DNA of 50,652 nt from Candidatus Eiseniibacteriota bacterium (GCA_043810925.1 JBDRNT010000028.1:1-50652), one strand, 5' to 3'. Numbered from the stretch's first letter, positions 21,702 to 43,163 are shown. Notes: generated by a model from the sequence alone, not told the origin. Program-made: numbers and translations.

Positions 21702-21755
21702 ACCGAAAAACCCTCTTGAATGTTTTCCGTTGGGAAGTGTCGAGGTTCTGTCAGG

Positions 21756-25265: not shown

Positions 25266-28138
25266 TGCCCGGGGACAAGATAAAGGACCATATAGTAGTA
25301 AAGGGTGCGAGGGAGCATAATCTTAAGTCGATAGACGTGAAAATCCCCCGGGACAAGATCACGGTTATAACGGGTCTGAGCGGCTCGGGCAAATCCTCGC
25401 TGGCATTTGACACGATCTATGCCGAAGGCCAGCGACGTTACGTTGAATCCCTCTCTGCGTATGCGCGGCAATTCCTCGGGCAGATGGAAAAACCCGACGT
25501 CGACTATATCGAGGGACTTTCTCCCGCCATAAGCATAGAACAGCGTGTTGCGGGCACGAATCCAAGATCAACCGTCGGCACGGTCACCGAGATTTATGAC
25601 TATCTCCGGCTGCTCTTCGCAAGGGTGGGGACACCGCACTGCTACAAGTGCGGCAGAGCGATCTCGCGTCAGACTGCAGACCAGATGGTCGACCGCATCC
25701 TGGAATTCGAAGACGGGGACGCAGTCCAGGTAATGGCGCCGCTTGTACGAGGCAGGAAAGGCGAACACCGCAAGCTGCTTGAACGGGCCAAGAAGGAAGG
25801 ATTCGTCAGGGTGAGGATTGACGGCCGGCTCCACGACCTTGATCGCAGGATCAAACTGGATAAGAACAGGAAGCATACGATAGATGTGGTCGTCGACAGG
25901 TTGAAGATGGAACCGGGTCTCAGGTCACGGGTGGCGGATTCCGTCGAGACTGCGCTCAAACTGGGTGGTGGTGTCGTGATTGTGAGCGGGCCGGACGGCC
26001 GGGAGATCGTACTCAGCCAGTTGTTTGCCTGCGTGGATTGCGGGATCGGTTTTCCGGAGATTTCACCCCGTATGTTCTCCTTTAACAGCCCCTACGGGGC
26101 GTGCGAGACCTGTGACGGCATTGGGCGGAAGCTCGAAGTAGATCCGACGCTGGTCGTGCCCGACGGTCATGTATCGCTTGCTCAAGGGGCGGTGGTTCCG
26201 TGGGGGAAGCGAAGAGGCAGTATGACGTGGGGGATGATCGAGTCGGTTGCGGAGCGCTACGGTATCTCGCTGGATACGCCGTTTGATGATCTTCCGGAGC
26301 CCCAAAGGCGGATAATGCTTCGCGGTACGGGTGATGAAAGCGTCAGTTTCAAGATAAAGGGCAGCCGCAGCCGCTATGAGTATCTCTCGCCCTTCGAGGG
26401 CGTGGTACACAACCTCGAGAGACGCTTTGTCGAGACGGATTCGGACGATATACGCTCCTGGATCGGACAGTTCATGGCAATGAGACCTTGCCCGGGTTGC
26501 GAGGGTGCACGGCTCAAACCCCAGAGTCTTTCAGTCAAACTCGCCGGCAGCAATATCAACGAAGTGACCGGTCTGTCGGTGGACAAGGCTCTCGGGTTCT
26601 TCTCCGGACTCAGTTTCAGGGGCACGGCCGCGAAGGTCGCATCTCCGATCGTAAAGGAGATAAAGGACAGGCTCAGGTTCATGTCCGATGTCGGACTTTC
26701 CTACCTCACGCTCGGCAGGTCGGCTTCCACTCTGGCCGGTGGCGAGCTCCAGAGGATAAGACTGGCGACCCAGATCGGATCCAGCCTCGTCGGAGTGCTC
26801 TACGTACTCGACGAGCCGAGCATCGGGCTTCACATGCGTGACAACCGGAGGCTGCTTGATACGCTGACGCGATTGAGAGACCTGGGCAATACAGTTGTGG
26901 TCGTCGAGCACGACCGTGAGACCATACTCTCGGCAGACTATGTGATCGATCTCGGACCCGGTGCGGGGAAGGACGGGGGCAGGGTCGTCGCCGTCGGAAC
27001 GCCGGAGGCCATAAAGAAGACGCGGACTTCGCTTACCGGCAGGTATCTGACAGGAGAAAAGCGGATTCCGACACCCTCCAGCCGGAGGACGGGAAGCGGG
27101 CAGTCGCTTGTCATACGCGGTGCACGTCAGTTCAATCTCAAAGACATAGATGTCGCTATACCCCTGGGTGCTCTCACCTGTGTGACCGGCGTTTCGGGTT
27201 CGGGGAAAAGCACACTCGTCAACGAGATTCTCTACAGGGCCCTTGCCAGACAGTTCTACAGGTCGAAGGACGAACCCGGGGAGCATGACGCAGTCGAAGG
27301 TACGGATCTCCTGGACAAAGTCATAGATATCGACCAGTCACCGATAGGAAGAACACCGCGGTCTAATCCCGCGACCTACACCGGTCTCTTCTCACCCATA
27401 CGGGAGGTCTTTGCACGGGTGCCCGAGGCGAAGATGAAAGGTTACAAACCGGGACGGTTCAGCTTCAATGTAAAGGGCGGCAGATGTGAGGCATGCAGAG
27501 GCGACGGCGTAACGAAGATCGAAATGCACTTCCTGCCTGATGTCTACGTAAGGTGTGACGTGTGCAAGGGGAAACGCTACGAACGGGAGACTCTCGAGAT
27601 CAGGTACAAGGGCAAGAGCATAGCGGAAGTCCTGGAAACAACGGTCGCCGAGGCGCGGGAATTCTTCGAGAATATTCCGAACGTCAAGCGAAAGCTGGAC
27701 ACGCTCTATGATGTCGGTCTGGGTTACATCCATCTGGGCCAGCCCGCAACAACGCTTTCAGGCGGTGAAGCCCAGCGTGTGAAGCTTGCCCGCGAGCTAT
27801 CGAAAGTGAGCACCGGCCGGACCCTGTACATACTGGATGAGCCGACCACGGGTCTCCATTTCGAGGACACGCTCATGTTGCTCGGCGTGCTCAACCGGCT
27901 GGTGGACAGGGGCAATACCGTTGTTGTTATCGAACACAACCCGGACTGCATAAAGGTTGCGGATCACATAGTCGATCTCGGCCCCGAGGGTGGGGATGAC
28001 GGGGGCCGGATCGTTGCCGAGGGTACACCTGAGGAAATCTCGCTGTGCCGTGATTCGTATACGGGTGAGGTTCTGAGGCGTATCTTCGAAGACGAATCCG
28101 AGCTCTATGATCTTGAAAAGAAGATGACATCACGTTAG
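25265..28138 (+). CDS. uvrA: excinuclease ABC subunit A
   Basis: GAREHNLK, two Walker A motifs ([16 protein letters not shown]), Zn fingers and LSGGEAQR. Confidence 0.98.
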
Positions 28139-28150
28139 TGTATGTAGTTC

Positions 28151-29242
28151 TTGGGAGGACTATTGGAGACAAAAAAGACACCGCTTTATGAGAGGCAGGT
28201 CGCCCTGGGGGGGAGGCTGGTGGAATTTGCCGGCTTTCTCATGCCTGTTGAATTCACCGGGGTCGTTGACGAGCATATGAGTGTCAGACGCGAGGTGGGC
28301 ATCTTCGATGTGTCCCATATGGGAGAGATATCCATATCGGGTGACCGTGCCCTCGATTATGTCGGCAGGCTTACAACGAATGATGCTGCGGGGCTGGACC
28401 CTTTCCAGGCCCAGTACACCCTGATGCTCAACGACGACGGCGGGGTGATCGATGATTTGCTTGTCTACATAAGGAAGTACGACTACCTGCTGGTGGTCAA
28501 CGCGGCCAACACCGGCAGGGTGCTGGCATGGGTGACGGACCATGCTCCCGATGATGTACGCATTGAAAACCTCAGCGAGGAGACGGGGCTGATCGCGCTT
28601 CAGGGGCCGGGAGCCAAAGATGTGATGTCGCAGGTATGCGTCGATAACGTTGCGGGTCTCGATAGCTTCCGTTCCATGGGAGCGACAATCGGTGATGCAC
28701 CGTGTCTTGTTTCGCGGACCGGCTATACCGGAGAGGACGGTTTCGAAATCTTCACCAATGCTTCGAGCGCGGGCGATGTCTGGGACACGCTGATGGACGT
28801 GCAGCCCGTACCCAAGCCGTGCGGTCTGGGGGCAAGGGACACGCTGCGTCTTGAGATGGCCTTCAGGCTCCATGGCAGTGACATGGATGAAAGCACCACG
28901 CCCTTTGAAGCAGGGCTCGGCTGGACCGTCAAACTGGACAAGGGTGACTTCTACGGACGGGATGCATTGGTCCGCCAGAAGGAGAGCGGGATACCGAAAA
29001 AGCTCATAGGCTTAAGATCGGACGCCAGACGGTTTGCGAGACGCGGCTCGAAAGTCCGGTCGGGTGGAGAGGAGATAGGGGAAGTGACAAGCGGAGGCTT
29101 CTCGCCTTCACTTAAGTGCGGTATCGCGCTTGCCTATGTTCGATCGGACTATGCCAAACGCAGTACCGACTTCGAGATTGACGTCAGAGGCCGGCTCATT
29201 GATGCGAAGTATGAGAAGGGGCCTTTTTACAGGAAAACGTAG
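28151..29242 (+). CDS. gcvT: glycine cleavage aminomethyltransferase T
   Basis: KTPLY, FDVSHMGE, SRTGYTGEDGFE and GLGARDTLRLE motifs. The start may be TTG 28163. Confidence 0.96.
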   Translation: MGGLLETKKTPLYERQVALGGRLVEFAGFLMPVEFTGVVDEHMSVRREVGIFDVSHMGEISISGDRALDYVGRLTTNDAAGLDPFQAQYTLMLNDDGGVIDDLLVYIRKYDYLLVVNAANTGRVLAWVTDHAPDDVRIENLSEETGLIALQGPGAKDVMSQVCVDNVAGLDSFRSMGATIGDAPCLVSRTGYTGEDGFEIFTNASSAGDVWDTLMDVQPVPKPCGLGARDTLRLEMAFRLHGSDMDESTTPFEAGLGWTVKLDKGDFYGRDALVRQKESGIPKKLIGLRSDARRFARRGSKVRSGGEEIGEVTSGGFSPSLKCGIALAYVRSDYAKRSTDFEIDVRGRLIDAKYEKGPFYRKT

Positions 29243-29260
29243 GGATAGAAAGGAGATACA

Positions 29261-29641
29261 GTGATGATTCCGGACGATCTGCGTTACTCCGACAAGCACG
29301 AATGGGTCAAGGCCGATGGTGACATCGCTACGGTGGGCATAACGGACTATGCCCAGACCCAGCTGGGTGACATCGTCTATGTCGAGCTTCCCTCGGTGGG
29401 AACCAAGGTCGAGGCTGCAGCATCGTTTGGTACGATCGAGGCGGTCAAGGCGGTAAGCGATCTCTACTGTCCGGTCTCAGGCGAAGTCGTTGAGGTGAAC
29501 GACAACGTCACCGCCGATCCTGCCGTAATCAAGTCGTCACCGTACGGGGACGGGTGGATGGTAAAGGTCAGGATGGATAAGAAGGAAGAACTTGATTCGC
29601 TCCTCAGCGCGGGCAAGTACCGCGAGCTTACCGGGGAGTAA
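29261..29641 (+). CDS. gcvH: glycine cleavage H protein
   Basis: HEW, GITDYAQTQLGDIVYV, lipoyl-Lys in EAVKAVSD, and SPYGDGW. Confidence 0.97.
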   Translation: MMIPDDLRYSDKHEWVKADGDIATVGITDYAQTQLGDIVYVELPSVGTKVEAAASFGTIEAVKAVSDLYCPVSGEVVEVNDNVTADPAVIKSSPYGDGWMVKVRMDKKEELDSLLSAGKYRELTGE

Positions 29642-29646
29642 CCGAC

Positions 29647-31002
29647 TTGGTGTACATACCGAGGACCGAACAGGAAAAGGCTGAGATGCTGCGCGTGATC
29701 GGTGTGGAGGCCTTCGATGACCTGCTTGCCGACTTGCCGGAGGACCTCCGGCTTAAGCGCGCGCTGGATCTGCCGCCGCCTCTTTCGGAGTTCGAAGCGA
29801 AAACGACCCTCAAGAACTTGGCATCGCTCTCAGCCGATCCCGACGAGTGGACGTGCTTCCTGGGAGGCGGAGTCTATGATCACTACATTCCCAGCATTGT
29901 CGACCACATGTCGTCGCGCTCGGAGTTCTACACGGCCTATACGCCCTACCAACCGGAGGTGAGCCAGGGGACGCTCCAGTCGGTCTACGAGTTCCAATCA
30001 CTGATCACCCGGCTGACCGGCATGGATATCGCGAATGCCTCGCTCTACGATGGCGGTACTGCGATCGCCGAAGCCGCACTGATGGCGCATGCCGTAAACG
30101 GCAGGAAACATGTAATAGTCAGCGGTTGCATCAATCCGCTGAGGCTTGCGGTTCTTGAGGCGTATCTTGCGTCAAGTGGTTTCGAGATCAGCGTGACGGG
30201 CAGGCAGGGGGGGGCAACCGATCCTGAAGAGGTACGATCGCTTGCCGGAGACGACACGTGCTGTGTCGTCCTTGAGAATCCCAACTTCTTCGGTGTGGTC
30301 GAAAACCCGGGACCCATCGGCGAGATAGCCCGCACAAATGGGGCGCTCTTCATAGTGTCGGCGGACCCGATTTCCCTTGGACTTCTCAAAGCCCCTTCCG
30401 AGTACGGGGCCGATGTGGTTGTCGGTGAGGGCCAATCCCTCGGTAACAGCCTCAGTTTCGGGGGATCATGTCTGGGTTTCATCGCAACGCGAACGCAGTA
30501 CGTAAGGAGGCTTCCCGGCAGAATCGTCGGCCGCACGGTCGACGTCGACGGCAACCGGTGTTTCTGCCTCACCCTCCAGACACGCGAACAGCACATCAGG
30601 CGCGAGCGGGCCACCTCCAACATATGCACGAACCAGGCACTTCTTGCCCTGCGTGCCACCGTCTACCTTTGCTGGCTTGGAAAGCACGGGATCGCTGAAG
30701 TGGCAAACCTTTGTTTTTCGAAAGCCGTGTATGCCCACAAGCAGCTCCTTGCGGCCGGGTTCTCGCCGCGGTTCACCGGTCCCTTCTTCAAGGAGTTCGT
30801 GATCAAGCTGCCCGTCGATGCCGCCACGGTGGTTCAGCGGCTGGCCGGGCACCGGATCGCCCCGGGCATTGCGCTCGGCAGGTTCTATGAGAACGAGACC
30901 GATTCACTCCTTATCGCCTTTACGGAGAAGCGGACAAAGGCCGAGATCGACAGACTCGTCCTCGCGTTGAAAAACGCGGCAGGAACCGGGGGGCGCGGGT
31001 AA
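29647..31002 (+). CDS. gcvPA: glycine dehydrogenase (decarboxylating) subunit 1
   Basis: [16 protein letters not shown] and [19 protein letters not shown] motifs. Confidence 0.97.
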
Positions 31003-32444
31003 TGAAATCACGTACCACGATATTCGAAGAAAGCCGTCCGGGCCGCCGGGCATATACGCTGCCGTCCCTGGACGTGCCCGTTGTCAGAGCGGAGGCATTC
31101 TTACCATCGGATCTTATCCGCAGGGAGCCTCCGGGGCTTCCTGAGGTTTCCGAGCCAGAGATCGCCCGCCACTTCGTCAACCTGTCGGTTCTCAATCATC
31201 ATGTTGACAGGGACCTCTATCCGCTCGGTTCATGCACGATGAAATACAATCCCAAGGTCGGGGAAGACGTAGCCAACTTCCGGGGGTTTTCGGATCTGCA
31301 CCCTCTCATGGGCGAAGAACATGTGCAGGGCGCGCTCCGGCTCATGCACGGACTCGGTCTTGCTCTGTGTGAGATAACAGGGATGGATGATGTGACGATG
31401 GTTCCCGCAGCCGGTGCTCACGGCGAACTGACGGGGATGCTGCTGGTTCGCGCCTATCATGAGGACCGCGGCAGCCGGAGAAGCAAGGTGCTGATCCCTG
31501 ATTCCTCGCACGGCACCAATCCGGCCAGTGTGCAGATTGCAGGCTACAAGGCCGTGGAGATAAAATCGGATTCGAGCGGCAGGATTGATGCCGACTCGCT
31601 GAAGTCCAATCTCAGTGAGGACGTTGCAGCGTTGATGGTGACCAATCCCAACACGCTGGGGCTCTTTGAGACCGACATCTGTGAAATCGCCGGACTCGTT
31701 CATGATGCCGGCGGTCTGGTCTACATGGACGGGGCGAACATGAACGCGCTGCTGGGCATATCGCGACCCGGCGACTTCGGGATCGACATGGCCCATCTCA
31801 ACCTGCACAAGACATTCTCCACTCCGCATGGTGGTGGAGGTCCCGGGTCCGGTCCGCTTGTGGTCAAGGCGGACCTTGCAGAGTACCTGCCTGTACCCGT
31901 CGTCCGCCGGGAAGGGGACACCTTCAGGTTCGTGTATGACTTGCCGAAGTCGATCGGTCGAATCCATACCTTCTACGGCAACTTCTCAGTTCTTATCAAG
32001 GCGTACTGTTATATTCTGATGTGCGGGGCCGACGGTCTACGTGAGGCGGCGGAGAATGCGATAATCAATGCGAACTACCTTCTCTCCAAACTGAGAGACG
32101 ATTTCACGGTGCCCTATGGGGGGGCGTGCAAACACGAATTCGTGCTCTCGGGGAGGGACAAGCTCAAAGCCGGTGTAAGAACCGCCGACATCGCCAAGCG
32201 GCTTATGGACTATGGTTTTCATCCGCCCACGGTGTACTTCCCGCTGATTGTTGAAGAGGCTCTCATGATTGAACCCACCGAGACCGAATCCAGAGAAACC
32301 CTCGACAGGTTTGCCGAAGCGCTCCATCGAATCAGTACGGAGATAGCAACAGATCCCGAGAAGGTCAAAGGGGCGCCGTATTCGACACCCGTGCGCCGGG
32401 TTGATGAGGCGACGGCGGCAAGGAAGATCGATGTCGCAGAATGA
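31002..32444 (+). CDS. gcvPB: glycine dehydrogenase (decarboxylating) subunit 2
   Basis: [14 protein letters not shown]-Lys in [18 protein letters not shown], and MIEPTETE. Confidence 0.97.
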
Positions 32445-32871
32445 GGCCGGACAGGATATGGAGTGGAGCATATTCCCCTTCATGGAAGACCTGAAACGCT
32501 CGATCATCGTCGTGGTGGTGATACTTGTCTGCGGGCTCCTGGTCTATCTGGCGTTTAAGGACGTCTTCCTTGCACTGCTTTCGGTACTCATTCTCTTTGT
32601 GTCGCTCCATACGTATTTCAGCAAAACTACTTACCGGCTCGACCGCGACGGGGTCGTTATCAGAACTTCCCTTGCAAAAACCGTCAAGAAGTGGTCTGAT
32701 TTCAAAAGATACCATGCCGACCGGAAGGGGGTTACACTCTCTCCCTTTGCCAAACCATCGAGGCTTGAGCCTTTCAGGTCGGTGAGATTACTGTACAAGG
32801 ACAACAAAGACGATGTGGTGGAGTTTATTTCGACGAACATCGGGGGACCGACCCCCACTGACGCCGGTTAG
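32431..32871 (+). CDS. hypothetical membrane protein (2 TM plus a small beta/PH-like domain)
   Basis: A TM hairpin followed by [10 protein letters not shown]...W.DF...LSPF..PSRL..FR. Overlaps the gcvPB stop. Confidence 0.75.
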
Positions 32872-33211
32872 AGATGTTGCCGGCGAGGTCGAACCGGCTT
32901 CTGAGGAAGAGGAGCTCCTGAGGAAGGTGGCGGAGCGAATAGTCCGGATGAGGATGGCCGTACCTGCTATATTCTTTCTTGAATCGAGCAAACCGCTTGC
33001 TTTTCTGGGCGGCCAGTTGCTAATCTTTCTAGAACCGTTTGTTCAGACCCTGTTCAATATCCGTCAGTATCAGCAGTTTGCCTTGATGATGGAGGACAGG
33101 GACAACTGGGAGAAGATGATCAAGAAGGTAGAGGATCTGGAGGCCGAGTACTCCGAACGCGAGAAGGAGTCCAAGAAGAAGAAGGACTCCACGAGGGGAA
33201 AGAAGAAATGA
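32813..33211 (+). CDS. hypothetical helical protein
   Basis: KVAERIVRMRMAVPAIFFLESSKPLAFLGGQ core. Overlaps both neighbours. The start is uncertain. Confidence 0.72.
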   Translation: MWWSLFRRTSGDRPPLTPVRDVAGEVEPASEEEELLRKVAERIVRMRMAVPAIFFLESSKPLAFLGGQLLIFLEPFVQTLFNIRQYQQFALMMEDRDNWEKMIKKVEDLEAEYSEREKESKKKKDSTRGKKK

Positions 33212-35049
33212 CAGAAGGTGCCGATCTGAAGAAGGATCCGGATGCGATACGGACCATCATCGCGACCGACTGCGGGAGCACGACCACAAAAGCCATATTG
33301 ATAGAGAAACATGACGGTCATTACCGGCTTGTCAACAGAGGCGAGGCTCCCACCACGGTCGAAGCACCATTTGAAGATGTCACGCGCGGTGTTCTCAATG
33401 CGGTCGCGGAGGTCGAGGATCTCACGGGACGGAAGTTCATAAGAGACGATAAGATAGTGTATCCGAGGGACGGCGAGACAGGGACCGACCTCTATGTGTC
33501 GACTTCATCCGCCGGCGGCGGGCTTCAGATGATGGTCGCCGGGGTGGTAAAGGAAATGACGGCGGAGAGCGCCCAGCGAGCGGCGCTCGGGGCCGGTGCG
33601 ATCGTCATGGATGTGATCGCCTCCAACGACCGCAGACAGCCCTACCAGCGGATCCGGCTGATACGAAATCTCAGACCGGACATGATCCTGCTGTCGGGTG
33701 GAATAGACGGCGGGACGACGACCCATGTTGCAGAGCTGGCCGAGTTGATTGCGGCGGCCGATCCGAAACCCAGGTTGGGAATGGCATACTCCCTGCCTGT
33801 CATCTATGCAGGCAACGTCGACGCGAGGGAGATCGTCAAAGACAGGCTCGACGCCAAGAGCAGCCTGACGATCACGGAGAACCTGAGACCCGTCCTTGAA
33901 AGAGAAAACCTCCAGCCGGCGAGACTCCGGATCCAGGATCTGTTTCTCGAACATGTAATGATGCACGCACCCGGGTACAAGAACCTTCTTGAGTGGACCG
34001 CGGTGCCGATCATGCCGACTCCCGCGGCGGTCGGTTCGATAATGCAATTGATCGCCAAGAATGAGGGGATAGATGTGGTGGGCGTGGACATTGGAGGGGC
34101 GACGACCGACGTGTTCTCGGTGTTCGGTGAGGTTTTTAACCGCACCGTCAGCGCAAACCTCGGTATGAGTTACTCCGTATCCAACGTGCTTGCTGAGGCG
34201 ACCGTTCCCAATATCCTCAGATGGGTCCCGTTCGATGTTGAGGAAGCCGACCTCAGGAACCGGATAAAGAACAAGATGATCAGACCAACAACCATACCTC
34301 AGGCGCTCGAGGAGCTGATGATCGAGCAGGCCATCGCCAGGGAGGCACTGCGGCTTGCGTTCATACAGCACAAGCTTCTTGCGGTTGGACTCAAGGGCGT
34401 ACAGCAGGAACGGACCATATCCGATACGTTCGAGCAGACCGAAAGTGGTGCGACACTCGTCAACATGATGGAACTCGACATACTGGTGGGCAGCGGTGGC
34501 GTCCTGTCACATGCCCCACGCAGGGTCCAGGCGGCCTTCATGCTGATCGACGGGTTCTATCCTGAGGGCCTGACCCAGCTGGCCGTAGACAGCATCTTCA
34601 TGATGCCCCAGCTGGGAGTTCTTGCACAGGTACATCCCAAGGCGGCCCTCGAGGTGTTTCATAAGGACTGTCTGATCAAGCTGGGTACATGCGTCGCCCC
34701 CGTCGGCGTCGCCAAGGCGGGTGACCAGTGCGTCGACATAACACTTGAAATGCCGGACGGTAAGACCGAGAAGAGATCGATCAAGTTCGGCGAGATGGCG
34801 GTCATCCCGCTCGAGGTCGATGCGAAAGCAAAGGCGACCATACATCCGGCAAGAAAGTTCGATGTTGGGGCCGGCAGGGGTAAGGAGATCCACACCGAGA
34901 TTCTTGGCGGCGTGGTTGGGATAATCATAGATGCGAGGGGCAGGCCTCTGGTACTGCCCACCGACAGGGGTGAGAGGGTTCGCAGGCTGACTGAATGGAA
35001 CAAGGCCCTCGACGTTTATCCGGAAGACCGAGAATCAACGGAGGTGTGA
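33208..35049 (+). CDS. GlmL/MutL-family (glutamate mutase L-like) ASKHA/actin-fold ATPase, extended form
   Basis: Phosphate-1 DCGSTTTK, SSAGGGL, AALGAG, PDMILLSGGIDGG, MPTP, phosphate-2 DIGGATTDVFS, RTV.ANLGM and GSGGVLSH motifs. C-terminal extension with GIIIDARGRP. Confidence 0.85.
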   Translation: MTEGADLKKDPDAIRTIIATDCGSTTTKAILIEKHDGHYRLVNRGEAPTTVEAPFEDVTRGVLNAVAEVEDLTGRKFIRDDKIVYPRDGETGTDLYVSTSSAGGGLQMMVAGVVKEMTAESAQRAALGAGAIVMDVIASNDRRQPYQRIRLIRNLRPDMILLSGGIDGGTTTHVAELAELIAAADPKPRLGMAYSLPVIYAGNVDAREIVKDRLDAKSSLTITENLRPVLERENLQPARLRIQDLFLEHVMMHAPGYKNLLEWTAVPIMPTPAAVGSIMQLIAKNEGIDVVGVDIGGATTDVFSVFGEVFNRTVSANLGMSYSVSNVLAEATVPNILRWVPFDVEEADLRNRIKNKMIRPTTIPQALEELMIEQAIAREALRLAFIQHKLLAVGLKGVQQERTISDTFEQTESGATLVNMMELDILVGSGGVLSHAPRRVQAAFMLIDGFYPEGLTQLAVDSIFMMPQLGVLAQVHPKAALEVFHKDCLIKLGTCVAPVGVAKAGDQCVDITLEMPDGKTEKRSIKFGEMAVIPLEVDAKAKATIHPARKFDVGAGRGKEIHTEILGGVVGIIIDARGRPLVLPTDRGERVRRLTEWNKALDVYPEDRESTEV

Positions 35050-35052
35050 CAG

Positions 35053-36186
35053 GTGGCACACGCTTATTCACCCGGACTGAGGGTCGCCCGGCGGACCGAG
35101 GTACGGAAGGAGCGCAGACTGCCGCTGCGCGGTGAGGTTCTGGTCGCGGTAGGCGATCATGTTCAGGCTGAGACGGTCGTTGCGAGGACCGAATTGCCCG
35201 GAAACGTTCAGACGATCAATGTTGCCAATAAACTCAGCATCCTTCCCGAGGACATCGAGCGCCACATGCTTGCCAAGACCGGGGACTGGGTCGACGAGGA
35301 TGAACTCCTCGCAGAGAGCAGGAGTTTCTTCGGTCTCTTCAAGTCACACTGCAAGATGCCGATCGGGGGGACGATTGAATCCGTCTCCGAGATCACCGGC
35401 CAGGTGATCATACGTGAGAAGGCGATACCGGTGGAAGTGAACGCCTATGTCGAGGGTGAGGTGATGGAGGTCTTCGAGGACGAGGGGGTTCTCATCAAGA
35501 CCGAAGGGACGTTCGTCCAGGGCATCTTCGGAATCGGCGGGGAGGCGGTCGGCATGCTCGAAGTCGTCGCCGATAATGGCAGCGATATCCTGTCTCCCGA
35601 CGTGATTTCACCGTCGCACAAGGACAAGGTCATCATCGGGGGCTCGCTTGTCACCATGGACTCGCTCAACCGTGCCGTGGAGGTCGGTGTAAGGGGGATA
35701 ATCGTCGGTGGCATGGGCGACTCCGATCTGCGCACCATCCTCGGTTATGACCTGGGTGTCGCCATAACGGGCACGGAGGATATCGGGCTCAGTCTTATTG
35801 TGACCGAGGGGTTCGGCGAGATGACGATGGCCAAGCGTACGTTCGATCTGCTTGCTTCCAGACAGGGGATGAAAGCGTCCATAAGCGGGGCTACGCAGAT
35901 AAGGGCGGGCGTGATAAGGCCGGAGGTCGTGATTCCGCTCATCGGGACCGGAGAAGACAGTGAAAAGAGGAAACGCGGCGAGGCGCCCTCGACAGGTCTC
36001 GTCGTCGGAAGCTCGGTAAGGGTGATAAGAGTGCCATACTTCGGCCGGATCGGAAAAGTGACCAATCTGCCCCCGGAGCTCCAGAAGCTTGAGTCCGAGG
36101 CCATGGTGAGGGTGCTCGGAGTGGAATTCGAAGACGGCACGCACGCCGTCGTACCGCGGGCCAACGTAGAACTTATTGAAGAGTAG
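35053..36186 (+). CDS. hypothetical soluble protein with barrel-sandwich-hybrid (lipoyl/RnfC-N-like) half motifs and a C-terminal KOW/SH3-like domain
   Basis: GEVLVAVGDHVQAETVVA and KTGDWVDEDELLAE...PIGGTIESV motifs. C-terminal GSSVRVIRVPYFGRIGKV. RBS GGAGGTG. Confidence 0.75.
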   Translation: MAHAYSPGLRVARRTEVRKERRLPLRGEVLVAVGDHVQAETVVARTELPGNVQTINVANKLSILPEDIERHMLAKTGDWVDEDELLAESRSFFGLFKSHCKMPIGGTIESVSEITGQVIIREKAIPVEVNAYVEGEVMEVFEDEGVLIKTEGTFVQGIFGIGGEAVGMLEVVADNGSDILSPDVISPSHKDKVIIGGSLVTMDSLNRAVEVGVRGIIVGGMGDSDLRTILGYDLGVAITGTEDIGLSLIVTEGFGEMTMAKRTFDLLASRQGMKASISGATQIRAGVIRPEVVIPLIGTGEDSEKRKRGEAPSTGLVVGSSVRVIRVPYFGRIGKVTNLPPELQKLESEAMVRVLGVEFEDGTHAVVPRANVELIEE

Positions 36187-36188
36187 GG

Positions 36189-37307
36189 ATGGGAACCTCG
36201 TATAGATTCCTCTTCGTTTTGCTGCTTGTTGTTGTGTTCGGCTGGGTACCGGGATCGGTACTCGCATCTCTCCAGGTTTCGGTCGAGGACTTTCCGGACG
36301 ATGACGGCACGGCCCTCATTGTCAGGTGGGACGGTGTGATTACACCGGCTCAGACCCTGGTGATAGCAAGAGCCACCTACCCGGATACCACCTCCTGGTC
36401 GCAGGTCGCTGAGGTCGACGCGGAGCCCGGAGAGTTCGTCAACACGCGGCTCTCTAGGCACCGGTCCTACATCTACAAAGTGACTTCCCCCGACGGCGCC
36501 ATCGCGGTGACGGAAGCCGTGAAGCCCAGGGCGTCGATGCTGAGCCGCGGGAGGATCAACATGCTTGTGATCCTCGCACTCTTCCTCGCATTTGTCCTGT
36601 TCTACATACGGCTGGCCGCATCGGGCAGGGAACTCTTCGTCCGGAAGATCCCCGGACTCAGTGCCATTGAAGAGGCGATAGGCAGGGCCACGGAGATGGG
36701 CAGACCCGTTCTTTATGTTCCGGGCATTGACGACCTCAACAATATCCAGACGATAGCGAGCATGGTTATTCTCAGCGACGTCGCACGGCTTACGGCAACC
36801 TATGAGACCCCTTTGATAGTCCCCGTCTGCAAGCCCTTTGTCGTTCCTGTCGCCGAGGAGGCGGTCAAGCAAGGACATCTCAACGCCGGCCGTCCCGAAC
36901 TCTATAACCCCGATAACGTGAGATACCTGTCGGATGAACAGTTCGCCTTCACCGCCGGTGTCAACGGCATCATGCTGAGGGAGAAGACGGCGGCGAACAT
37001 CTATATGGGATCTTTTTTCGCTGAATCGCTTATTCTCTCCGAGACAGGCTTCTCGGCGGGTGCGATACAGGTGGCGGGAACCGCGAATATCCACCAGCTT
37101 CCCTTCTTTGTAGCTGCATGCGACTATACCCTGATAGGCGAGGAACTGTATGCGGCGAGCGCCTATCTTTCGAAGGAGCCGAAACTGCTGGGCACACTCA
37201 AGGCAAGTGACCTGGCCAAGGTCCTGATCTTGATAGTGCTGGTCGTTGGGTTCATTACAGAGACGCTGGGTCTTGAGCGTTTCGCCGAATGGTTTACGGC
37301 GAGGTAA
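36189..37307 (+). CDS. membrane protein: signal peptide, FN3-like domain and DUF6754-like domain
   Basis: Signal peptide, then D.P.DDG..L...W...Y.YKV beta sandwich, a TM helix, RKIPGLSAIEEAIGRATEMGRP...QLPFF..ACDY.LIGEELYAASAYL, and a C-terminal TM. The DUF name is from recall. Confidence 0.72.
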   Translation: MGTSYRFLFVLLLVVVFGWVPGSVLASLQVSVEDFPDDDGTALIVRWDGVITPAQTLVIARATYPDTTSWSQVAEVDAEPGEFVNTRLSRHRSYIYKVTSPDGAIAVTEAVKPRASMLSRGRINMLVILALFLAFVLFYIRLAASGRELFVRKIPGLSAIEEAIGRATEMGRPVLYVPGIDDLNNIQTIASMVILSDVARLTATYETPLIVPVCKPFVVPVAEEAVKQGHLNAGRPELYNPDNVRYLSDEQFAFTAGVNGIMLREKTAANIYMGSFFAESLILSETGFSAGAIQVAGTANIHQLPFFVAACDYTLIGEELYAASAYLSKEPKLLGTLKASDLAKVLILIVLVVGFITETLGLERFAEWFTAR

Positions 37308-37311
37308 AGGT

Positions 37312-37932
37312 ATGAAGAACGAGATCCCGGTTGCGATCGCGTTTGCAGCAGGCATGCTTATGGTCGTATCCCTCTTCGTTCCTCATCCGTACATAGCAGG
37401 CCCGGCGGCCGTTGCGAGGAGCTGGGCGATCATCATAACTGCGTTTGCGTATGTCCTTGGTGTTGCGAACATAGCCAGGATAAGCGTCAACACCGTGAGG
37501 AAGAAGTCGGCCGACTGGGAATACAAGACCGCGCTCTTGGTCGCGCTTGCGGCCATGGCCGGGGCCGGCATCGGCGGAGGCATCCACACCGGCGGTTCTT
37601 TCGACTGGACCTATCTCAATGTCTATGTCCCCATGCAGGCTACGATGTTCTCGCTGCTTGCCTTTTTCATAGCGTCAGCGGCTTTCAGGGCGTTTCGTGC
37701 ACGATCCGTTGAAGCGACGCTTCTTCTTGTCACAGCTGCGATCGTGATGCTCGGAAGGGTTCCCGTAGGCGAACAACTATGGGGCAGGCTCCCCGACTTC
37801 ACGGAGTGGATAATGGAAGTCCCCAACATGGCCGCGAAGCGGGGGATCATGATAGGCGCGGCACTCGGTGCGATATCCACGGGTCTTAAGATGATCCTCG
37901 GTCTGGAAAGATCCTACCTGGGTGGTGAATGA
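37312..37932 (+). CDS. hypothetical polytopic membrane protein (about 6 TM)
   Basis: Hydrophobic throughout, with P.QATMFSLLAFFIASAAFRAFR and AKRGIMIGAALG...G.ERSY motifs. Confidence 0.78.
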   Translation: MKNEIPVAIAFAAGMLMVVSLFVPHPYIAGPAAVARSWAIIITAFAYVLGVANIARISVNTVRKKSADWEYKTALLVALAAMAGAGIGGGIHTGGSFDWTYLNVYVPMQATMFSLLAFFIASAAFRAFRARSVEATLLLVTAAIVMLGRVPVGEQLWGRLPDFTEWIMEVPNMAAKRGIMIGAALGAISTGLKMILGLERSYLGGE

Positions 37933-38777
37933 TGAAGGAAACCGAAAACAACGGGGGTTTTATTGCACGGCTCTCGGGGATCGACAGGAGGGTTCTCTTC
38001 CTGATAATCCTGATCTGCGTGGTTATCCCGCTGCTTGCCGGAGCGAGGACGAAGATGTCGATCACCCCGCCGGTAAGAGGTCTCTACGATGCAATAGAAG
38101 GGCTTGAACCGGGTTCGTATGTATGGCTCGCGGCAGACTACGATCCGGGATCGATGCCCGAGCTCTACCCGATGAATATCTCTCTTGTCGAGCATCTCTT
38201 CTCGAAGGACATAAAGGTGATCTGTGCCGCCCTGTGGCCGCCCGGGCCGCCACTGGCGCAGAGGGTCTTCGATGAGATGGCTGCGAAGTACGGCAAGACA
38301 TACGGGGTCGACTACGTCAATCTGGGCTTTAAGGAGGGACGAGAGGCCGTGATGGTATCGGTCGCCGAGGACATGCGCACGGCGTTTCCCGAGGATTTCG
38401 CGGGCACCGCCTGGGACAGCATACCGATGCTCGAGGGCATCCGGAATCTCACGGATCTTGAGATGATCGTCTGCGTGTCGGCCGGCTACCCCGGTATAAA
38501 GGAGTGGATACAGCAGGTATCAACCCGGTATGACATCACGACCGGCGGCGGTGTTACGGCCGTGACCGGTCCCGAGATGTACCCCTATATCCAGTCCGGC
38601 CAACTTGTCGGTCTCCTGGCCGGAATGAAGGGCGCTGCGGAATACGAACAGCTGGTCGGCAAGCCGGGGCTGGGGCTGTCGGGCATGGTTGCGCAGTCGT
38701 ATGTGCACCTGATGGTCGTCGTTTTCATAATCTTCGCCAACATCATCTACTTCGTCGAGAAGCGGAGAGCAGGATGA
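37929..38777 (+). CDS. hypothetical membrane-anchored alpha/beta protein
   Basis: N- and C-terminal TMs around DYDP...ELYP, YGVDYVNLGF and YPY.QSGQLVGLL.G.KGAAEYE. ATGA overlaps on both sides. Confidence 0.78.
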   Translation: MMKETENNGGFIARLSGIDRRVLFLIILICVVIPLLAGARTKMSITPPVRGLYDAIEGLEPGSYVWLAADYDPGSMPELYPMNISLVEHLFSKDIKVICAALWPPGPPLAQRVFDEMAAKYGKTYGVDYVNLGFKEGREAVMVSVAEDMRTAFPEDFAGTAWDSIPMLEGIRNLTDLEMIVCVSAGYPGIKEWIQQVSTRYDITTGGGVTAVTGPEMYPYIQSGQLVGLLAGMKGAAEYEQLVGKPGLGLSGMVAQSYVHLMVVVFIIFANIIYFVEKRRAG

Positions 38778-39523
38778 AACTGAGGATAGCACTGACAGGT
38801 CTTGTGGTGGTGCTGGTCGTCATCGCATTGGCCTCGGGGCGAATTTCGTCACTCACGTTCGGCAAGTGGGTCGCCGCGCTCTTGACGCTCTCGATTTTCA
38901 GCTTTCTCTATAAGGATAACCCGGTCTACAAGATGGCCGAGCACGTCTTCATAGGCATTTCTGCCGGCTACTTTGTCTCGCTGGAATACTGGAATGTCTT
39001 CATACCGAACCTGTGGAATCCTCTCTTAGAGGGGACACGGGAGAATCTGATTCTGATAGTGCCGTTCGGTCTGGGTCTGCTCCTGTTTACGAGATTCTAT
39101 CCACGCATCGCCTGGCTCAGCAGGTGGTCTATGGCGGCGATGATAGGTTCCTATGCGGGTCTTGCGATAATAGGTGCCCTCCAGGGAGATCTGGTCGCCC
39201 AGATAAGGGCCAATATGATTCCCCTGTATTCTCCAGGGAGTGTTGTTGCGCTCGGGAACAGTCAGGGTGCGACCGAGATCTTTTTCGGCCTGCTTGAGGT
39301 TTTGCGCAACCCGCTGATCATAGTAGGTTTGATCGCCACACTCATATACTTCTTCTTCTCGCGGGAACACAAGGGCGGGTTCGGCGTCGTCTCGAAGGTC
39401 GGCGTTTGGTTCCTGATGATTTCCTTCGGGGCGTCTTTCGGCTACACCGTTATGAGCAGAGTCTCGCTTCTGATCGGGAGGCTCCACTTCCTCCTGAGCG
39501 ACTGGTTGGGCATAATCCCTTGA
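38774..39523 (+). CDS. hypothetical polytopic membrane protein (about 7 TM)
   Basis: TLSIFSFLYKDNPVYKMAEHVFIG, YFFFS.EH and FLMISFGASFGYTVMSR motifs. Confidence 0.78.
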   Translation: MKLRIALTGLVVVLVVIALASGRISSLTFGKWVAALLTLSIFSFLYKDNPVYKMAEHVFIGISAGYFVSLEYWNVFIPNLWNPLLEGTRENLILIVPFGLGLLLFTRFYPRIAWLSRWSMAAMIGSYAGLAIIGALQGDLVAQIRANMIPLYSPGSVVALGNSQGATEIFFGLLEVLRNPLIIVGLIATLIYFFFSREHKGGFGVVSKVGVWFLMISFGASFGYTVMSRVSLLIGRLHFLLSDWLGIIP

Positions 39524-40344
39524 CGAAACTCACGCAGAGACTTGAAACACTTGGGTTCGGTACGTATGACGCCGGCTACAACATGATGCTCGATCTCCGT
39601 CTCTATACGCTGTGCGAGAACGGTTCGGACAGCGGTTTCCTGAGGTTCTACACGTGGTCGGGACGAACGCTGTCGCTTGGTCACTTCGAGGATGCAAGTG
39701 TGATCGACATGGCCCGGGCCCTTGAAGACGGAGTCCAGGTGGTCAGGCGGCCGACCGGCGGACGGGTGGTTCTCCACGGGGATGACCTGACCTATGCCGT
39801 CGTTGTACCCAGAGGGGCCGGCCAGAGCCCCCTTGAGGCATACAGGATGATCTCGGAGTGCATAGTCAGAGGTTTCACCCGGCTGGGGATCGAGGTCGGG
39901 CTCGAACGCAGTTCTGCCTGCAAGTCCGATGTCACCAGAAAGCCGTGCTTCGTGTCGACAAGCAGGTATGAAATCCTGCATCGGGGCAGGAAGGTTGCCG
40001 GTAGTGCGCAGAAGACAGGCAGCAGCGCGGTCCTTCAGCACGGCAGCATTCCGCTGGGCAGGGAATACCTCAAGGTCGTCGACTACATGGCCTCCGACTG
40101 CAAAGACCGGGCGAGGCTCCGCTCGGATATTGATGCCGCCACGACCTGCATATATGACCTGCTCGGGTCGTGTCCTGCGCCCGAGGAGGTAGCTACAGCA
40201 CTGGCCCACGGCTTCACCGAACGATTCGATCTTGTTGGGCGCAGAGCTCACGCCGATGTTCTGGACAGGGAGGTGACGGACGCTCCTCAGAGGCTCGAAA
40301 ACGGGGTTTCGGGGGGCCCGCGCGGAGCAGACAAAAGCACTTGA
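39520..40344 (+). CDS. lipoate-protein ligase/octanoyltransferase family (LipM/LplA-like)
   Basis: NM.LD, LRFYTW, VVRRPTGGRVVLH, GRKVAGSAQ and LQHGSI motifs. The TTG start overlaps the upstream stop (TTGA). Confidence 0.9.
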   Translation: MTKLTQRLETLGFGTYDAGYNMMLDLRLYTLCENGSDSGFLRFYTWSGRTLSLGHFEDASVIDMARALEDGVQVVRRPTGGRVVLHGDDLTYAVVVPRGAGQSPLEAYRMISECIVRGFTRLGIEVGLERSSACKSDVTRKPCFVSTSRYEILHRGRKVAGSAQKTGSSAVLQHGSIPLGREYLKVVDYMASDCKDRARLRSDIDAATTCIYDLLGSCPAPEEVATALAHGFTERFDLVGRRAHADVLDREVTDAPQRLENGVSGGPRGADKST

Positions 40345-40370
40345 CAGTAAGTCTTTGGTTTTAATATAGT
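40341..40370 (+). promoter_or_regulatory. putative sigma70 promoter of the TonB receptor operon
   Basis: TTGACA, 18 nt spacer, TATAGT. Confidence 0.6.
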
Positions 40371-40435
40371 AACCTCGGATGATGGCTTCCATATCTAGGA
40401 TGATGTCGGCCCAACCCAAAAGGGGGATGGATACT

Positions 40436-43141: not shown

Positions 43142-43163
43142 TCTCTTGACGGAGGACCTGACG

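Follow-up and report, generated by a model that had tools for sequence, protein, structure and literature searches.

Eight tightly spaced genes lie inside a glycine cleavage operon of Candidatus Eiseniibacteriota bacterium (GCA_043810925.1 JBDRNT010000028.1:1-50652; the whole stretch of 50,652 nucleotides is called the window here). What do these genes encode, and does their position mean that they serve glycine metabolism? An earlier prediction, made from the sequence alone, had described them as an undescribed ATP-linked membrane machine tied to lipoyl-GcvH and glycine metabolism. Gene content and recurrence in other genomes bear out the machine, and we conclude that the evidence supports a widespread, very conserved, undescribed ATPase-linked membrane system. 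The tie to glycine metabolism fares less well. A literature search on the system found no paper.

The gene array

ORF calling on the window recovered the predicted gene set at 28151-40344, in the co-directional order gcvT-H-PA-PB, g1-g8, and a lipoate-ligase-family gene (Table 1). With the longest ORFs, the junctions from gcvPB to the ligase-family gene range from +4 to -118 bases. The ligase-family gene probably starts at TTG 39520, which turns the last junction (g8/ligase) into a 4-base overlap, and g1 probably starts at 32404 or later; the longest ORF for g6 begins at 37246. The ligase-family gene scores far below every NCBIfam cut-off. The original prediction had named a 2-TM protein (g1), a GlmL-type ASKHA ATPase (g3), a barrel-sandwich-hybrid protein (g4), an FN3 plus DUF6754-like protein (g5), a 6-TM protein (g6), a membrane-anchored protein (g7), and a 7-TM protein (g8), and the hydrophobic segments, profile matches, and predicted g4 model agree with each of these descriptions.

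Table 1. Genes of the array, with window coordinates and the basis for each assignment
Gene	Coordinates	Strand	Description	Basis
gcvT	28151..29242	+	Aminomethyltransferase, context upstream of the system	GCV_T PF01571 3.5e-85, PF08669 1.9e-21
gcvH	29261..29641	+	Lipoyl carrier H protein	GCV_H PF01597 4.4e-46
gcvPA	29647..31002	+	Glycine dehydrogenase subunit 1	GDC-P PF02347 1.3e-125
gcvPB	31002..32444	+	Glycine dehydrogenase subunit 2	GcvP2_C PF21478 6e-31, PF02347
g1	32401..32871	+	Small, predicted two-helix membrane hairpin with beta-rich tail, module A	Longest ORF
g2	32813..33211	+	Small, helical/amphipathic, Lys/Glu-rich tail, module A	ORF
g3	33208..35049	+	Long-form GlmL/MutL-family actin-fold (ASKHA) ATPase, 613 aa, module A	PF13941 1.3e-126
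g4	35053..36186	+	Three-domain partner of g3, module A	Model, fold matches
g5	36189..37307	+	FN3/DUF6754 protein, first gene of module B	PF20539 2.3e-113
g6	37312..37932	+	Predicted six-helix membrane protein, module B	Six hydrophobic peaks
g7	37929..38777	+	Predicted TM helix at each end, module B	Hydrophobic segments 21-39, 258-276
g8	38774..39523	+	Predicted ~7-helix membrane protein, module B	Seven to eight hydrophobic peaks
Ligase-family gene	39406..40344	+	Lipoate/octanoate-protein ligase family (LplA/LipB catalytic domain), last in array	PF21948 (LplA-B_cat) 1.8e-27, PF03099 3.7e-15

Module A: a probable actin-fold ATPase and its partner

The g3 protein aligns with the whole PF13941 profile over residues 17-488 and shares the ASKHA nucleotide-binding motifs of the GlmL/MutL and Or-4 proteins. 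It differs from them in an extra C-terminal beta domain of ~125 residues, which begins after approximately residue 490, and in its scores of 223.7 bits against NF040745 (cut-off 475), 209.9 bits against NF040744 (cut-off 600), and 159.6 bits against TIGR01319 (cut-off 204). The phosphate-1, phosphate-2, and adenosine motifs (D21-G-S-T-T-T-K28, D294-I-G-G-A-x-T300, and G428-S-G-G431) are invariant in 28/28 sequences of an alignment that has a mean column identity of 66% and draws on loci spanning 36-70% G+C. Judged by these motifs, g3 is likely an active ATPase. The genome holds one copy.

Its partner g4 has no Pfam match itself, although certain homologues carry precomputed PF13375 or PF00364 assignments and certain homologues show weak PF13375 or PF05896 matches. 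The predicted model (pLDDT 84.5) comprises a barrel-sandwich hybrid, a swivelling beta/beta/alpha domain, and a KOW/SH3-like barrel. Residues 49-123 superpose on the N-terminal hybrid domain of Azotobacter vinelandii RnfC (8ahx_C; rmsd 2.6, 64 aligned) with a Z of 7.5, a value in the range that the fold-search tool calls common. Residues 152-299 match Enzyme I (2wqd_A; Z 9.4, rmsd 3.0, 108 aligned), and residues 315-375 match the KOW domain of NusG (1m1g_A; Z 8.9). A search among 50%-identity representatives gives 2521 relatives of g4 at E<=0.001, of which 522 reach E<=1e-30.

Linkage in metagenomes was scored in the 80 best of 593 loci recovered with g4 as the seed. In this sample, g3 lies directly upstream of g4 in 48/62 loci and is missing there in the other 14. 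In addition, there are 137 g4 matches among proteins of 661-2000 aa, most of which carry PF13941 and are ~990-1005 aa long, that is, g3-g4 fusions; in one (P0241), MutL occupies residues 12-484 and is followed by an RnfC_N-like stretch. The existence of these natural fusions in other lineages argues that g3 and g4 act as one unit.

Neither g1 nor g2 belongs to a family in Pfam or NCBIfam. The g1 protein has hydrophobic peaks at residues 34-48 and 55-69, and its gene is single copy by whole-genome tblastn; g2 has two weaker hydrophobic or amphipathic stretches. Among the 28 of the best 80 of 593 g4 loci that have enough flanking sequence, g1 is upstream of g3 in 14 and g2 in 22. At two loci (L159 and L165), g2 sits between g4 and g5.

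Module B: a four-protein membrane set

The g5 protein is a full-length member of DUF6754 (PF20539), a family without a described function whose members are often annotated as "fibronectin type III domain-containing protein"; a literature search by family name gave no paper. Its layout is a signal peptide, an exported FN3 domain, a TM helix, the cytoplasmic alpha/beta DUF6754 domain, and a second TM helix. The FN3 domain resembles those of titin and neogenin by profile and has a fold match at Z 11. In the model (pLDDT 78.3), helices 120-144 and 331-359 flank a domain of alternating strands and helices; this core had no match in two fold-search hit lists, both of which were filled by FN3 domains.

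The other three proteins have no Pfam family, bar one chance match among the 32 g7 members searched. In g7, a conserved domain of ~215 residues, which has no PDB relative by profile, lies between the terminal TM helices and is probably outside the cytoplasm. Together, the four proteins would form an inner-membrane complex with ~17 membrane helices that exposes two domains, the g5 FN3 domain and the middle of g7, outside the cytoplasm. On the cytoplasmic side it would carry a single alpha/beta domain of very high conservation, DUF6754. No transporter family in Pfam or NCBIfam matches any of the eight proteins.

Two modules rather than one cassette

Searching the whole genome by tblastn revealed g1-g4 in the window alone, while paralogous g5-g8 sets occur on contigs C12, C69, C81, and C171 and a lone g5 on C161. 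The genome thus contains one module A (g1-g4), five complete modules B (g5-g8), and one additional g5, for six DUF6754 matches; g7 and g8 have four paralogues each, and those of g6 on the four contigs are 40-48% identical. The extra B sets adjoin unrelated neighbours, including an M28 peptidase, a transketolase, and a glycogen debranching enzyme. In two genomes of the same class (G016 and G017), the order is uvrA-gcvTHPAPB-g2-g3-g4, so that g2 keeps company with the ATPase pair, and g5-g8 map to another contig.

In the metagenome sample (best 80 of 593 loci), g5 follows g4 within 2 kb in 19/52 loci and does not follow it in 33, and the DUF6754 copies per locus number 0, 1, 2, and 3 in 55, 15, 8, and 2 loci, respectively. 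Since g5 is so often not after g4, and g3 is sometimes missing upstream of it, parts of the system can be encoded apart, a point against the working partnership proposed below. The genes do recur as a block elsewhere, as expected for the single eight-gene cassette originally described, but its being one unit does not hold, given the five copies of g5-g8 here and their separation from g2-g4 in class-level relatives. We are confident of the two-module architecture.

A shared motor for several membrane modules?

None of the system's members has an experimentally assigned function, and any mechanism therefore rests on gene order, fusions, and models. Setting out from the observed gene content, modules, copy numbers, and fusions, we infer ATPase activity, docking, and translocation as follows. 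Module A would make up the cytoplasmic side, where the g3-g4 pair would act as a shared ATP-hydrolysing motor. By binding the conserved DUF6754 domain of each B module, this motor would power a cycle of conformational change or translocation across the inner membrane. The six g5 paralogues of the genome average 60% identity in the cytoplasmic core and 31% in FN3, which makes a common docking site plausible; variation among the B modules would lie chiefly in the parts that face outward, and what each of them acts on would probably differ accordingly. That the ATPase pair works on module B at all is the step we hold to be reasonably probable. We regard the fuller proposal, one ATP motor serving several membrane modules in an undescribed translocase, as evenly balanced, and a transport or translocation role as such remains tentative, somewhat short of even. 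A role as an amino acid or peptide transporter is possible.

Complex prediction, which the original prediction had suggested for the membrane proteins, ATPase, and hybrid protein, lends the docking step weak support. The pair of g3 and g5 residues 116-372 scored 0.59, against 0.00 for the best of three controls, with at least 93% of contacts shared between runs and a partner pLDDT of at least 74. This score passes a mark reached by 58/80 solved complexes and 2/110 mismatched pairs, rates that are approximate here since our own alignments were used. Nevertheless, the passing scores at or below 0.60 comprise 7/80 solved complexes and both passing mismatches, and in the band of 0.59 false passes outnumber true ones unless the pairing was already probable from the start.

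One energiser with many membrane units has precedents in modular transporters, for example, group II ECF systems and the PTS, with EI/HPr and many EII complexes; the motor set and five membrane modules here are alike in arrangement. The swivelling domain of g4 resembles Enzyme I, and its hybrid barrel belongs to a fold class that, by clan assignment, includes EIIA-Glc. However, g4 lacks an invariant His or Cys as a possible phosphoryl carrier, the system has no ABC or ECF family match in Pfam or NCBIfam, and its ATPase has an actin fold rather than a P-loop.

A possible role in envelope maintenance

The same parts might instead do a housekeeping job, transporting or remodelling a lipid, a lipid-linked compound, or an envelope component and not importing nutrients, with several B modules serving different envelope tasks. 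We consider this reading rather unlikely. In other lineages, the genes beside the ATPase pair mostly have housekeeping or envelope functions and not functions in nutrient use, so envelope maintenance fits at least as well as nutrient transport, and for a system that is not universal, g3 is very strongly conserved over loci of 36-70% G+C. In the best 80 of 593 loci, the genes at most two ORFs away from the block include accA (7 loci), lpxB (3), lpxK (1), cdsA (2), DAGK/YegS-like genes (3), a phospholipid methyltransferase (1), and ExbB/TolQ-type genes (9). These counts are not independent because the neighbour sets come in lineage blocks, for example, g4, a PorV-like barrel, accA, and era. The first Foldseek match of the g5 model is the HAD-like, phosphatidic acid-binding LNS2 domain of Nir2 (E 7e-5), a weak lead only, given an rmsd of ~26 A over an alignment that includes FN3. 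No lipid-transport family in Pfam or NCBIfam matches any subunit.

A possible link to glycine cleavage

A second alternative ties the system to glycine cleavage (GCV) and lipoyl-GcvH: it would supply GCV by importing glycine or peptides, or act as an energy-coupling or L-replacing module. As originally noted, the window has neither a lipoamide dehydrogenase nor a B12 mutase, and profile searches place no match on its contig (C28). The accompanying idea of GCV without an L protein is contradicted by the rest of the genome: lpdA is observed at C35:6088-7449 with 540.7 bits against a curated cut-off of 408.8. Whole-genome presence checks, which covered 18 genomes of this phylum, place lpdA above that cut-off in 18/18, and in three of these (G002, G005, and G011) it is on the operon's contig, ~25-30 kb away. 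The eight genes thus do not stand in for the L protein, whose gene lies elsewhere in the genome.

The position inside the operon is an old, recurrent gene order that is not universal. It appears in 14/46 scorable loci, which fall at five or more positions in the g4 tree and span 39-70% G+C, and is absent from the other 32; in the best 80 of 593 loci, gcvPB is present in 11/80 and lies just upstream of g1, g2, or g3 in 8/28 with enough flank. Class-level relatives keep module A beside gcv, but uvrA, an unrelated gene, is part of the same conserved order, which shows that neighbouring genes in this lineage do not necessarily work together. Probably, the position reflects co-expression.

Several other observations fit the glycine reading. 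The ligase-family gene follows the last g8 in four loci (L087, L107, L113, and L137) and in nine of nine order-level loci, genes for FAD-dependent DAO-family oxidoreductases precede g3 in 4 further loci, and a TonB-dependent receptor is downstream in several. No E2 acyltransferase was found in the 91.7%-complete genome, and GCV may therefore be its only lipoyl enzyme. On the other side, four of the five B modules are far from gcv, and no Lys, His, or Cys of the g4 hybrid domain is invariant in the homologue alignment. The absence of an invariant Lys, the limited gcv linkage, and the presence of uvrA in the conserved order count against the specific tie to lipoyl-GcvH that had been predicted. 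For energy coupling, the likeness of g4 to the hybrid domain of RnfC/NqrA is not matched by cofactors: no redox cofactor family in Pfam, and no Fe-S, flavin, or NADH-binding one, is found in any of the eight proteins, and g6 has no Cys. We judge the glycine reading improbable.

Possible cytoskeletal or B12-related roles

Still less probable is that the actin-fold protein polymerises or switches state on the membrane modules, as a membrane-anchored cytoskeletal element, scaffold, or signalling device like FtsA, MreB, or PilM rather than in powering transport. Actin-fold proteins that dock on membrane partners include PilM (with PilN/PilO), FtsA, and GspL through its cytoplasmic domain, and the arrangement here is alike: an ASKHA-fold cytoplasmic protein is encoded beside a membrane complex and small membrane proteins of bitopic or hairpin type. 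The g1 and g2 proteins may be comparable to PilN/PilO-type anchors, and an actin fold with conservation as high as that of g3 is typical of proteins with many contacts. A divergent g3-g4 paralogue also occurs as a fusion with an HTH_3 DNA-binding domain or zinc ribbon, as confirmed for P0347 and P0299, with several more in precomputed domain lists. However, that paralogue is distant, with 28-35% identity to g4, and is not a g3-g4 orthologue. There is no sequence match to the PilM, FtsA, or GspL families in Pfam, neither pilus nor divisome systems have a known equivalent of g4 or of the four-subunit module, and GlmL-family proteins are not known to polymerise. The many paralogous membrane modules with variable ectodomains better fit substrate-handling units.

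Finally, a classical role for g3, as reactivase or chaperone of a coenzyme B12 mutase encoded elsewhere with the membrane genes as unrelated neighbours, is very improbable: apart from its PF13941 match, this reading draws on two methylmalonyl-CoA mutase genes (C173), nine B12-binding-domain matches (eight over the cut-off), and methylmalonyl-CoA mutase in all 18/18 phylum genomes, but methylmalonyl-CoA mutase is known to use a G-protein chaperone, not GlmL, and the genome has no detected E subunit of glutamate (methylaspartate) mutase, the enzyme for which GlmL/MutL is an accessory protein. As predicted, g3 is not beside a B12 mutase, the mutases being on another contig, and it falls under the GlmL and Or-4 equivalog cut-offs; its constant company is g4, to which it is sometimes fused, and the membrane modules.

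Two Modules with Different Copy Numbers

The genes g1 to g8 lie between the glycine cleavage genes and a gene of the LplA/LipB ligase family, in an array with junctions of +4 to -118 bases between gcvPB and the ligase gene when the longest open reading frames are taken; starting the ligase at TTG 39520 brings its overlap with g8 to 4 bases. The array may end at the ligase gene because a near-consensus sigma-70-type site (TTGACA, 18 bases, TATAGT; 11/12) precedes the receptor gene and fills the 34-base gap between the two, as picked out by a promoter scan that gave no excess overall (6 sites versus a mean of 8.8 in shuffled sequence). The receptor and the 738-amino-acid protein with a type IX secretion (T9SS) tail may form a separate transcription unit. 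Two uvrA genes, 48% identical over 945 residues, occur in the genome; every relative examined keeps the window copy ahead of its gcv operon.

Features of the window, of other contigs of the same genome, and of two related loci (the five extra DUF6754 loci are L053-L057)
Feature	Contig or locus	Position	Strand	Remark
TPR protein	window	21720-25265	+	closely spaced run
uvrA	window	25265-28138	+
gcvT, gcvH, gcvPA, gcvPB	window	28151-32444	+	Pfam matches
g1 to g8	window	32401-39523	+
LplA/LipB-family ligase gene	window	39406-40344	+
Sigma-70-type site	window	40341-40370
TonB-dependent receptor	window	40379-43141	+
738-aa protein	window	43080-45296	+	weak type IX secretion (T9SS) tail
Second uvrA	C61	1709-4471
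Extra DUF6754 locus	C12	from 36929
Extra DUF6754 locus	C69	from 4991
Extra DUF6754 locus	C81	from 18202
Extra DUF6754 locus	C171	from 66595
Extra DUF6754 locus	C161	from 6734
Lipoamide dehydrogenase (L002)	C35	6088-7449
Weak GcvH-like stretch	C161	41893-42132
gcv-linked locus	L148	12465-14687		no membrane module after g4
Locus of G016	L078	11022-13241		synthetase-like gene after g4

The original prediction described the individual genes well: g3 is a full-length PF13941 protein, g5 combines FN3 with DUF6754, g7 carries a hydrophobic helix at each end, and the hydrophobic peaks of g1 (two), g6 (six), and g8 (seven to eight) are as described. It had also treated g1 to g8 as a single cassette, and this unity was not borne out. 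In a tblastn search of the whole genome, g5 to g8 recur jointly and in the same order on C12, C69, C81, and C171 at 36 to 50% identity, and a lone g5 lies on C161, while g1 to g4 are found in the window only. Profile counts (six DUF6754 matches and one PF13941 match) agree with this result, so that g5 to g8 (module B) are present five times and g1 to g4 (module A) once. The neighbors of the four extra complete sets include an M28 peptidase, a transketolase with a zincin-like peptidase, and a glycogen debranching enzyme, among others, and the lone g5 adjoins a two-component system and an S41 peptidase.

At the order level, the arrangement uvrA-gcv-g1 to g8-ligase-receptor is kept whole in all nine loci examined. 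In the class-level relatives G016 and G017, the two modules are unlinked: uvrA-gcvTHPAPB-g2-g3-g4 is followed by an ADP-forming acyl-CoA synthetase-like gene, and their single g5-g8 set lies on a different contig, where genes for an M1 peptidase and a deoxyhypusine-synthase-like protein precede it. In the G016 locus, the gene right after g4, where the window has g5 to g8, encodes CoA_binding, Succ_CoA_lig, and ATP-grasp_5 domains. A tree of 43 g5 copies places the paralogues of our genome in different old subfamilies, and the closest grouping of the window g5 is with the final copy in tandem arrays, L090 and L096 among them (support 97); duplication therefore came before these lineages diverged.

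The Actin-Fold ATPase g3

g3 matches the Pfam MutL family (PF13941) over profile positions 1 to 450 of 450 with 423.5 bits, against a gathering score of 27. All three nucleotide-binding motifs of the actin (ASKHA) fold, for phosphate and adenosine, are invariant in 28 of 28 g3 sequences, and the mean column identity is unusually high (66%). By profile search against PDB sequences, no related solved structure was found.

The database label for this ATPase is "glutamate mutase L." As the original prediction had stated, g3 is a GlmL-type ATPase with no adjoining mutase: genes for glutamate mutase (glmS/glmE) or for ornithine/lysine aminomutase subunits are absent from the window. Moreover, the 91.7%-complete genome gave no match to PF06368 (glutamate mutase E subunit); PF09043 is also unmatched there, but as it is unmatched in every control genome too, that search is uninformative. 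g3 shares PF13941 with GlmL and Or-4 but lacks mutase adjacency and falls below their curated equivalog cutoffs (GlmL NF040745, 223.7 bits versus 475; Or-4 NF040744, 209.9 versus 600), as it does for the GlmL subfamily TIGR01319 (159.6 versus 204.05). The label misleads metabolic reconstructions of uncultured phyla.

The Three-Domain Partner g4

The structural model of g4 (pLDDT 84.5) comprises three domains by fold search: a barrel-sandwich hybrid resembling RnfC (8ahx_C; Z 7.5, rmsd 2.6, 64 aligned); a domain of the swivelling beta/beta/alpha type, resembling Enzyme I (2wqd_A; Z 9.4, rmsd 3.0, 108 aligned) as well as rifampin phosphotransferase (5hv1_A; Z 9.0) and RraA (3c8o_A; Z 8.3); and a KOW/SH3-like barrel resembling NusG (1m1g_A; Z 8.9, rmsd 1.2, 52 aligned); these matches name folds, not functions, because the Z values lie in or just above the common range. 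A profile search against PDB sequences returned NusG only (E 0.009), and Foldseek matched only the KOW end of the model. Among the invariant columns of 16 g4 sequences there is no His, Cys, or Lys, nor is there a near-invariant His or Cys, which argues against a role as a phosphoryl, lipoyl, or biotinyl carrier. With the EI/EIIA phosphorelay of the PTS, g4 shares a fold resemblance to Enzyme I but no invariant phospho-accepting His on the swivelling or hybrid domain. As for Rnf and Na+-NQR, the resemblance seen is that of the g4 N-domain to RnfC, and a comparison of g5 to g8 with Pfam and NCBIfam sequence families gave no match to RnfA, RnfD, RnfE, or RnfG.

The Membrane Module and Its Predicted Contact with g3

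g5 matches DUF6754 (PF20539) with 378 bits, against a gathering score of 27, over profile positions 3 to 256 of 257. Its model (pLDDT 78.3) runs from a signal peptide through an exported FN3 domain, a helix at 120-144, and an alternating strand/helix domain at 155-328 to a second helix at 331-359. If FN3 is outside, the model would place the DUF6754 core in the cytoplasm. Across the six g5 paralogues of the genome, mean identity is 31% in the FN3 part and 60% in the core.

The FN3 domain dominated fold matches of the g5 model. With the core, a Protein Atlas structure search returned DUF6754 clusters only, and a feature search gave no usable named cluster besides them. No solved structure is related by sequence to the g5 core or to g7, for which a profile search against PDB sequences gave nothing meaningful. 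Pfam, NCBIfam, and PADLOC hold no model that matched g6, g7, or g8. Two ideas about the module were dropped: a pseudo-symmetric duplicated pair, because neither g6 with g8 (probability 0.6) nor g5 with g7 (probability 2.7) showed homology in hhalign, and a P-type-like phosphorylation site in DUF6754, where no Asp that follows the first strand is invariant or nearly so.

Of the complex foreseen in the original prediction, one contact gained weak support. When g3 was modeled with residues 116 to 372 of g5, each with its own alignment, the pair scored 0.59, and the best of three controls scored 0.00. At least 93% of contacts agree between runs, and partner pLDDT is at least 74. In calibration, 58 of 80 solved complexes and 2 of 110 mismatched pairs passed the mark, figures that are approximate since the alignments are our own; of these, only 7 of the solved complexes but both of the mismatches passed with a score of 0.60 or less. 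Because gene order had made this contact likely beforehand, the modeling is taken as modest support for docking of the ATPase on g5 of the membrane module, short of proof.

Distribution, Linkage, and Fusions

Relatives of g4 number 2521 among 50%-identity representatives, and searches with g4 and with g5 each scored at least 8000 90%-identity clusters. DUF6754 has no match in the 14 model genomes that served as controls, which may explain why the domain went unstudied. A scan of metagenome contigs was seeded on the g4 alignment, and because the best 80 of 593 matched stretches were kept, the sample leans toward relatives of the query. Among these best 80, g3 immediately precedes g4 in 48 of the 62 loci that show at least 2 kb on that side, and g5 lies within 2 kb downstream of g4 in 19 of the 52 that show at least 2.5 kb; DUF6754 copies number 0 in 55 loci, 1 in 15, 2 in 8, and 3 in 2, the multicopy loci being tandem g5-g8 sets. 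Some loci (L133, L134, L140, and L147) have a second, diverged g3-g4 pair. A separate scan of genome contigs gave only five loci, all from close relatives.

In addition, 137 proteins of more than 660 amino acids match g4, most of which are g3-g4 fusions, as evidenced by a length of about 990 to 1005 amino acids and PF13941 in front of g4. The source names of the fusion set include Neomarinimicrobiota, Planctomycetota, Cloacimonadota, and Zixibacteria. P0260, a single-member protein of 707 amino acids with a full g4 (49% identity, 100% coverage) and the first half of DUF6754, was not counted, as it is possibly a gene-calling artifact. In P0347, P0299, and others, a diverged g3-g4 paralogue (28 to 35% identity to g4) is fused to an N-terminal HTH_3 (XRE-type) domain or a zinc ribbon, which hints that one branch of the family may be regulatory.

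In eight loci (L102, L111, L135, L142, L153, L155, L157, and L160), g4 occurs without g3. The gene after it encodes a conserved, outer-membrane beta-barrel-like protein of about 280 to 315 amino acids with no Pfam match at E ≤ 0.001, and accA comes next in seven of the eight, the exception being L153, a short contig. In L155 and L160, era follows accA.

A Candidate Modular Translocase

The best-supported reading is that one cytoplasmic ATP motor serves several paralogous four-subunit inner-membrane modules. The motor would consist of g3 and g4 and would probably be kept at the membrane together with g1 and g2; the B modules would turn a constant face to the cytoplasm and variable faces outward. 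Such a combination is the plan expected of a modular translocase. It is comparable to the plans of group II ECF transporters and of the PTS with its general and sugar-specific parts, although the present system is a member of neither. A further step is more tentative, and we regard it as possible, short of probable: a new class of primary translocase with an actin-fold (ASKHA) ATPase motor, in which a single g3-g4 unit, sometimes one fused protein, would dock on the invariant cytoplasmic DUF6754 domain of several paralogous four-subunit complexes with differing outward domains. Solutes, peptides, lipids, and envelope polymers are all candidate cargoes.

To our knowledge, every well-understood case of ATP-driven membrane transport relies on a P-loop (ABC, AAA+, or SecA), rotary, or P-type motor. 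Among g1 to g8, neither Pfam nor NCBIfam detected a P-loop ABC ATPase or a known permease family above threshold; the sole ABC-type match, ABC_membrane_3 in g1, is subthreshold (17.7 bits versus 27) and has no NCBIfam counterpart. None of the eight proteins matched a defense model of PADLOC-DB (E ≤ 0.01). An actin-fold ATPase coupled to a dedicated multisubunit membrane complex would, if true, be a new energy-coupling principle in a system that is common, strongly conserved, and multicopy in some genomes. In literature searches that covered sources other than subscription journals, we found no paper on the system, DUF6754, PF13941, or TIGR01319, and nothing relevant under GlmL, glutamate mutase L, or glutamate mutase with ASKHA; to judge from these searches, the system is not in print.

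Two physiological roles fit. Nutrient import is consistent with the gcv, peptidase, and receptor neighbors in this genome. Envelope maintenance is consistent with the extreme conservation and with the housekeeping and lipid neighbors in other lineages, where a census of 200 of 216 neighbor ORFs and 12 of the remaining 16 counted ExbB-type genes at nine loci, accA at seven (usually preceded by a PorV-like barrel gene), lpxB at three, lpxK at one, cdsA at two, and DAGK-like genes at three. These neighbor sets form lineage blocks, and the counts are not independent. Further neighbors of g3-g4 are DAO-family oxidoreductases (four loci), prfA, era, ispH, and carB.

Relationship to Glycine Cleavage

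A specific tie between the system and glycine cleavage fares less well. Among the best 80 of 593 metagenome loci, gcvPB is present in 11, and in 8 of the 28 with enough flank it is the gene right before g1, g2, or g3; in four of these loci the last g8 is succeeded by a ligase-family gene. In a FastTree phylogeny of g4, the gcv state is known for 46 of 83 rows, of which 14 are linked and 32 are not, and the linked rows require at least five changes and span 39 to 70% G+C. On this basis, the linkage is old and recurrent and exceeds what chance gene order would give; a single ancient origin followed by losses and several gains are indistinguishable because the deep branches of the tree are weak. 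However, uvrA shares the same conserved order, four of the five B modules of the genome are located elsewhere, and the other neighbors of g3-g4 are mixed and mostly housekeeping. At the gcv-linked locus L148, which has no membrane module after g4, a large transposase gene (Transposase_29, 2.9e-177) lies about 1.3 kb downstream, which suggests a rearrangement at this locus.

Part of the original prediction was the idea that the eight genes replace the L protein of glycine cleavage. The window encodes the T, H, and P proteins and no lipoamide dehydrogenase, yet such a replacement is not needed. The genome encodes a lipoamide dehydrogenase on C35 (TIGR01350, 540.7 bits versus a cutoff of 408.8) with Pyr_redox_2 and Pyr_redox_dim domains, and a count across the phylum gave one such gene, no more and no fewer, in 18 of 18 genomes. 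In G002, G005, and G011, lpdA and the gcv operon share a contig about 25 to 30 kb apart, a distance that would carry lpdA beyond the end of the 50.6-kb contig studied here. The glycine cleavage system is complete in this organism, and an unusual redox partner need not be invoked. Because a search of the 91.7%-complete genome turned up no E2 acyltransferase (PF00198), glycine cleavage may be the only lipoyl enzyme of the organism, with the C35 lpdA product as its L protein. The C35 gene, the only lipoamide dehydrogenase gene of the genome, adjoins one for a CCG-domain (heterodisulfide-reductase-like) protein. C161 carries a second stretch with weak similarity to GcvH (27.5% identity over 80 residues).
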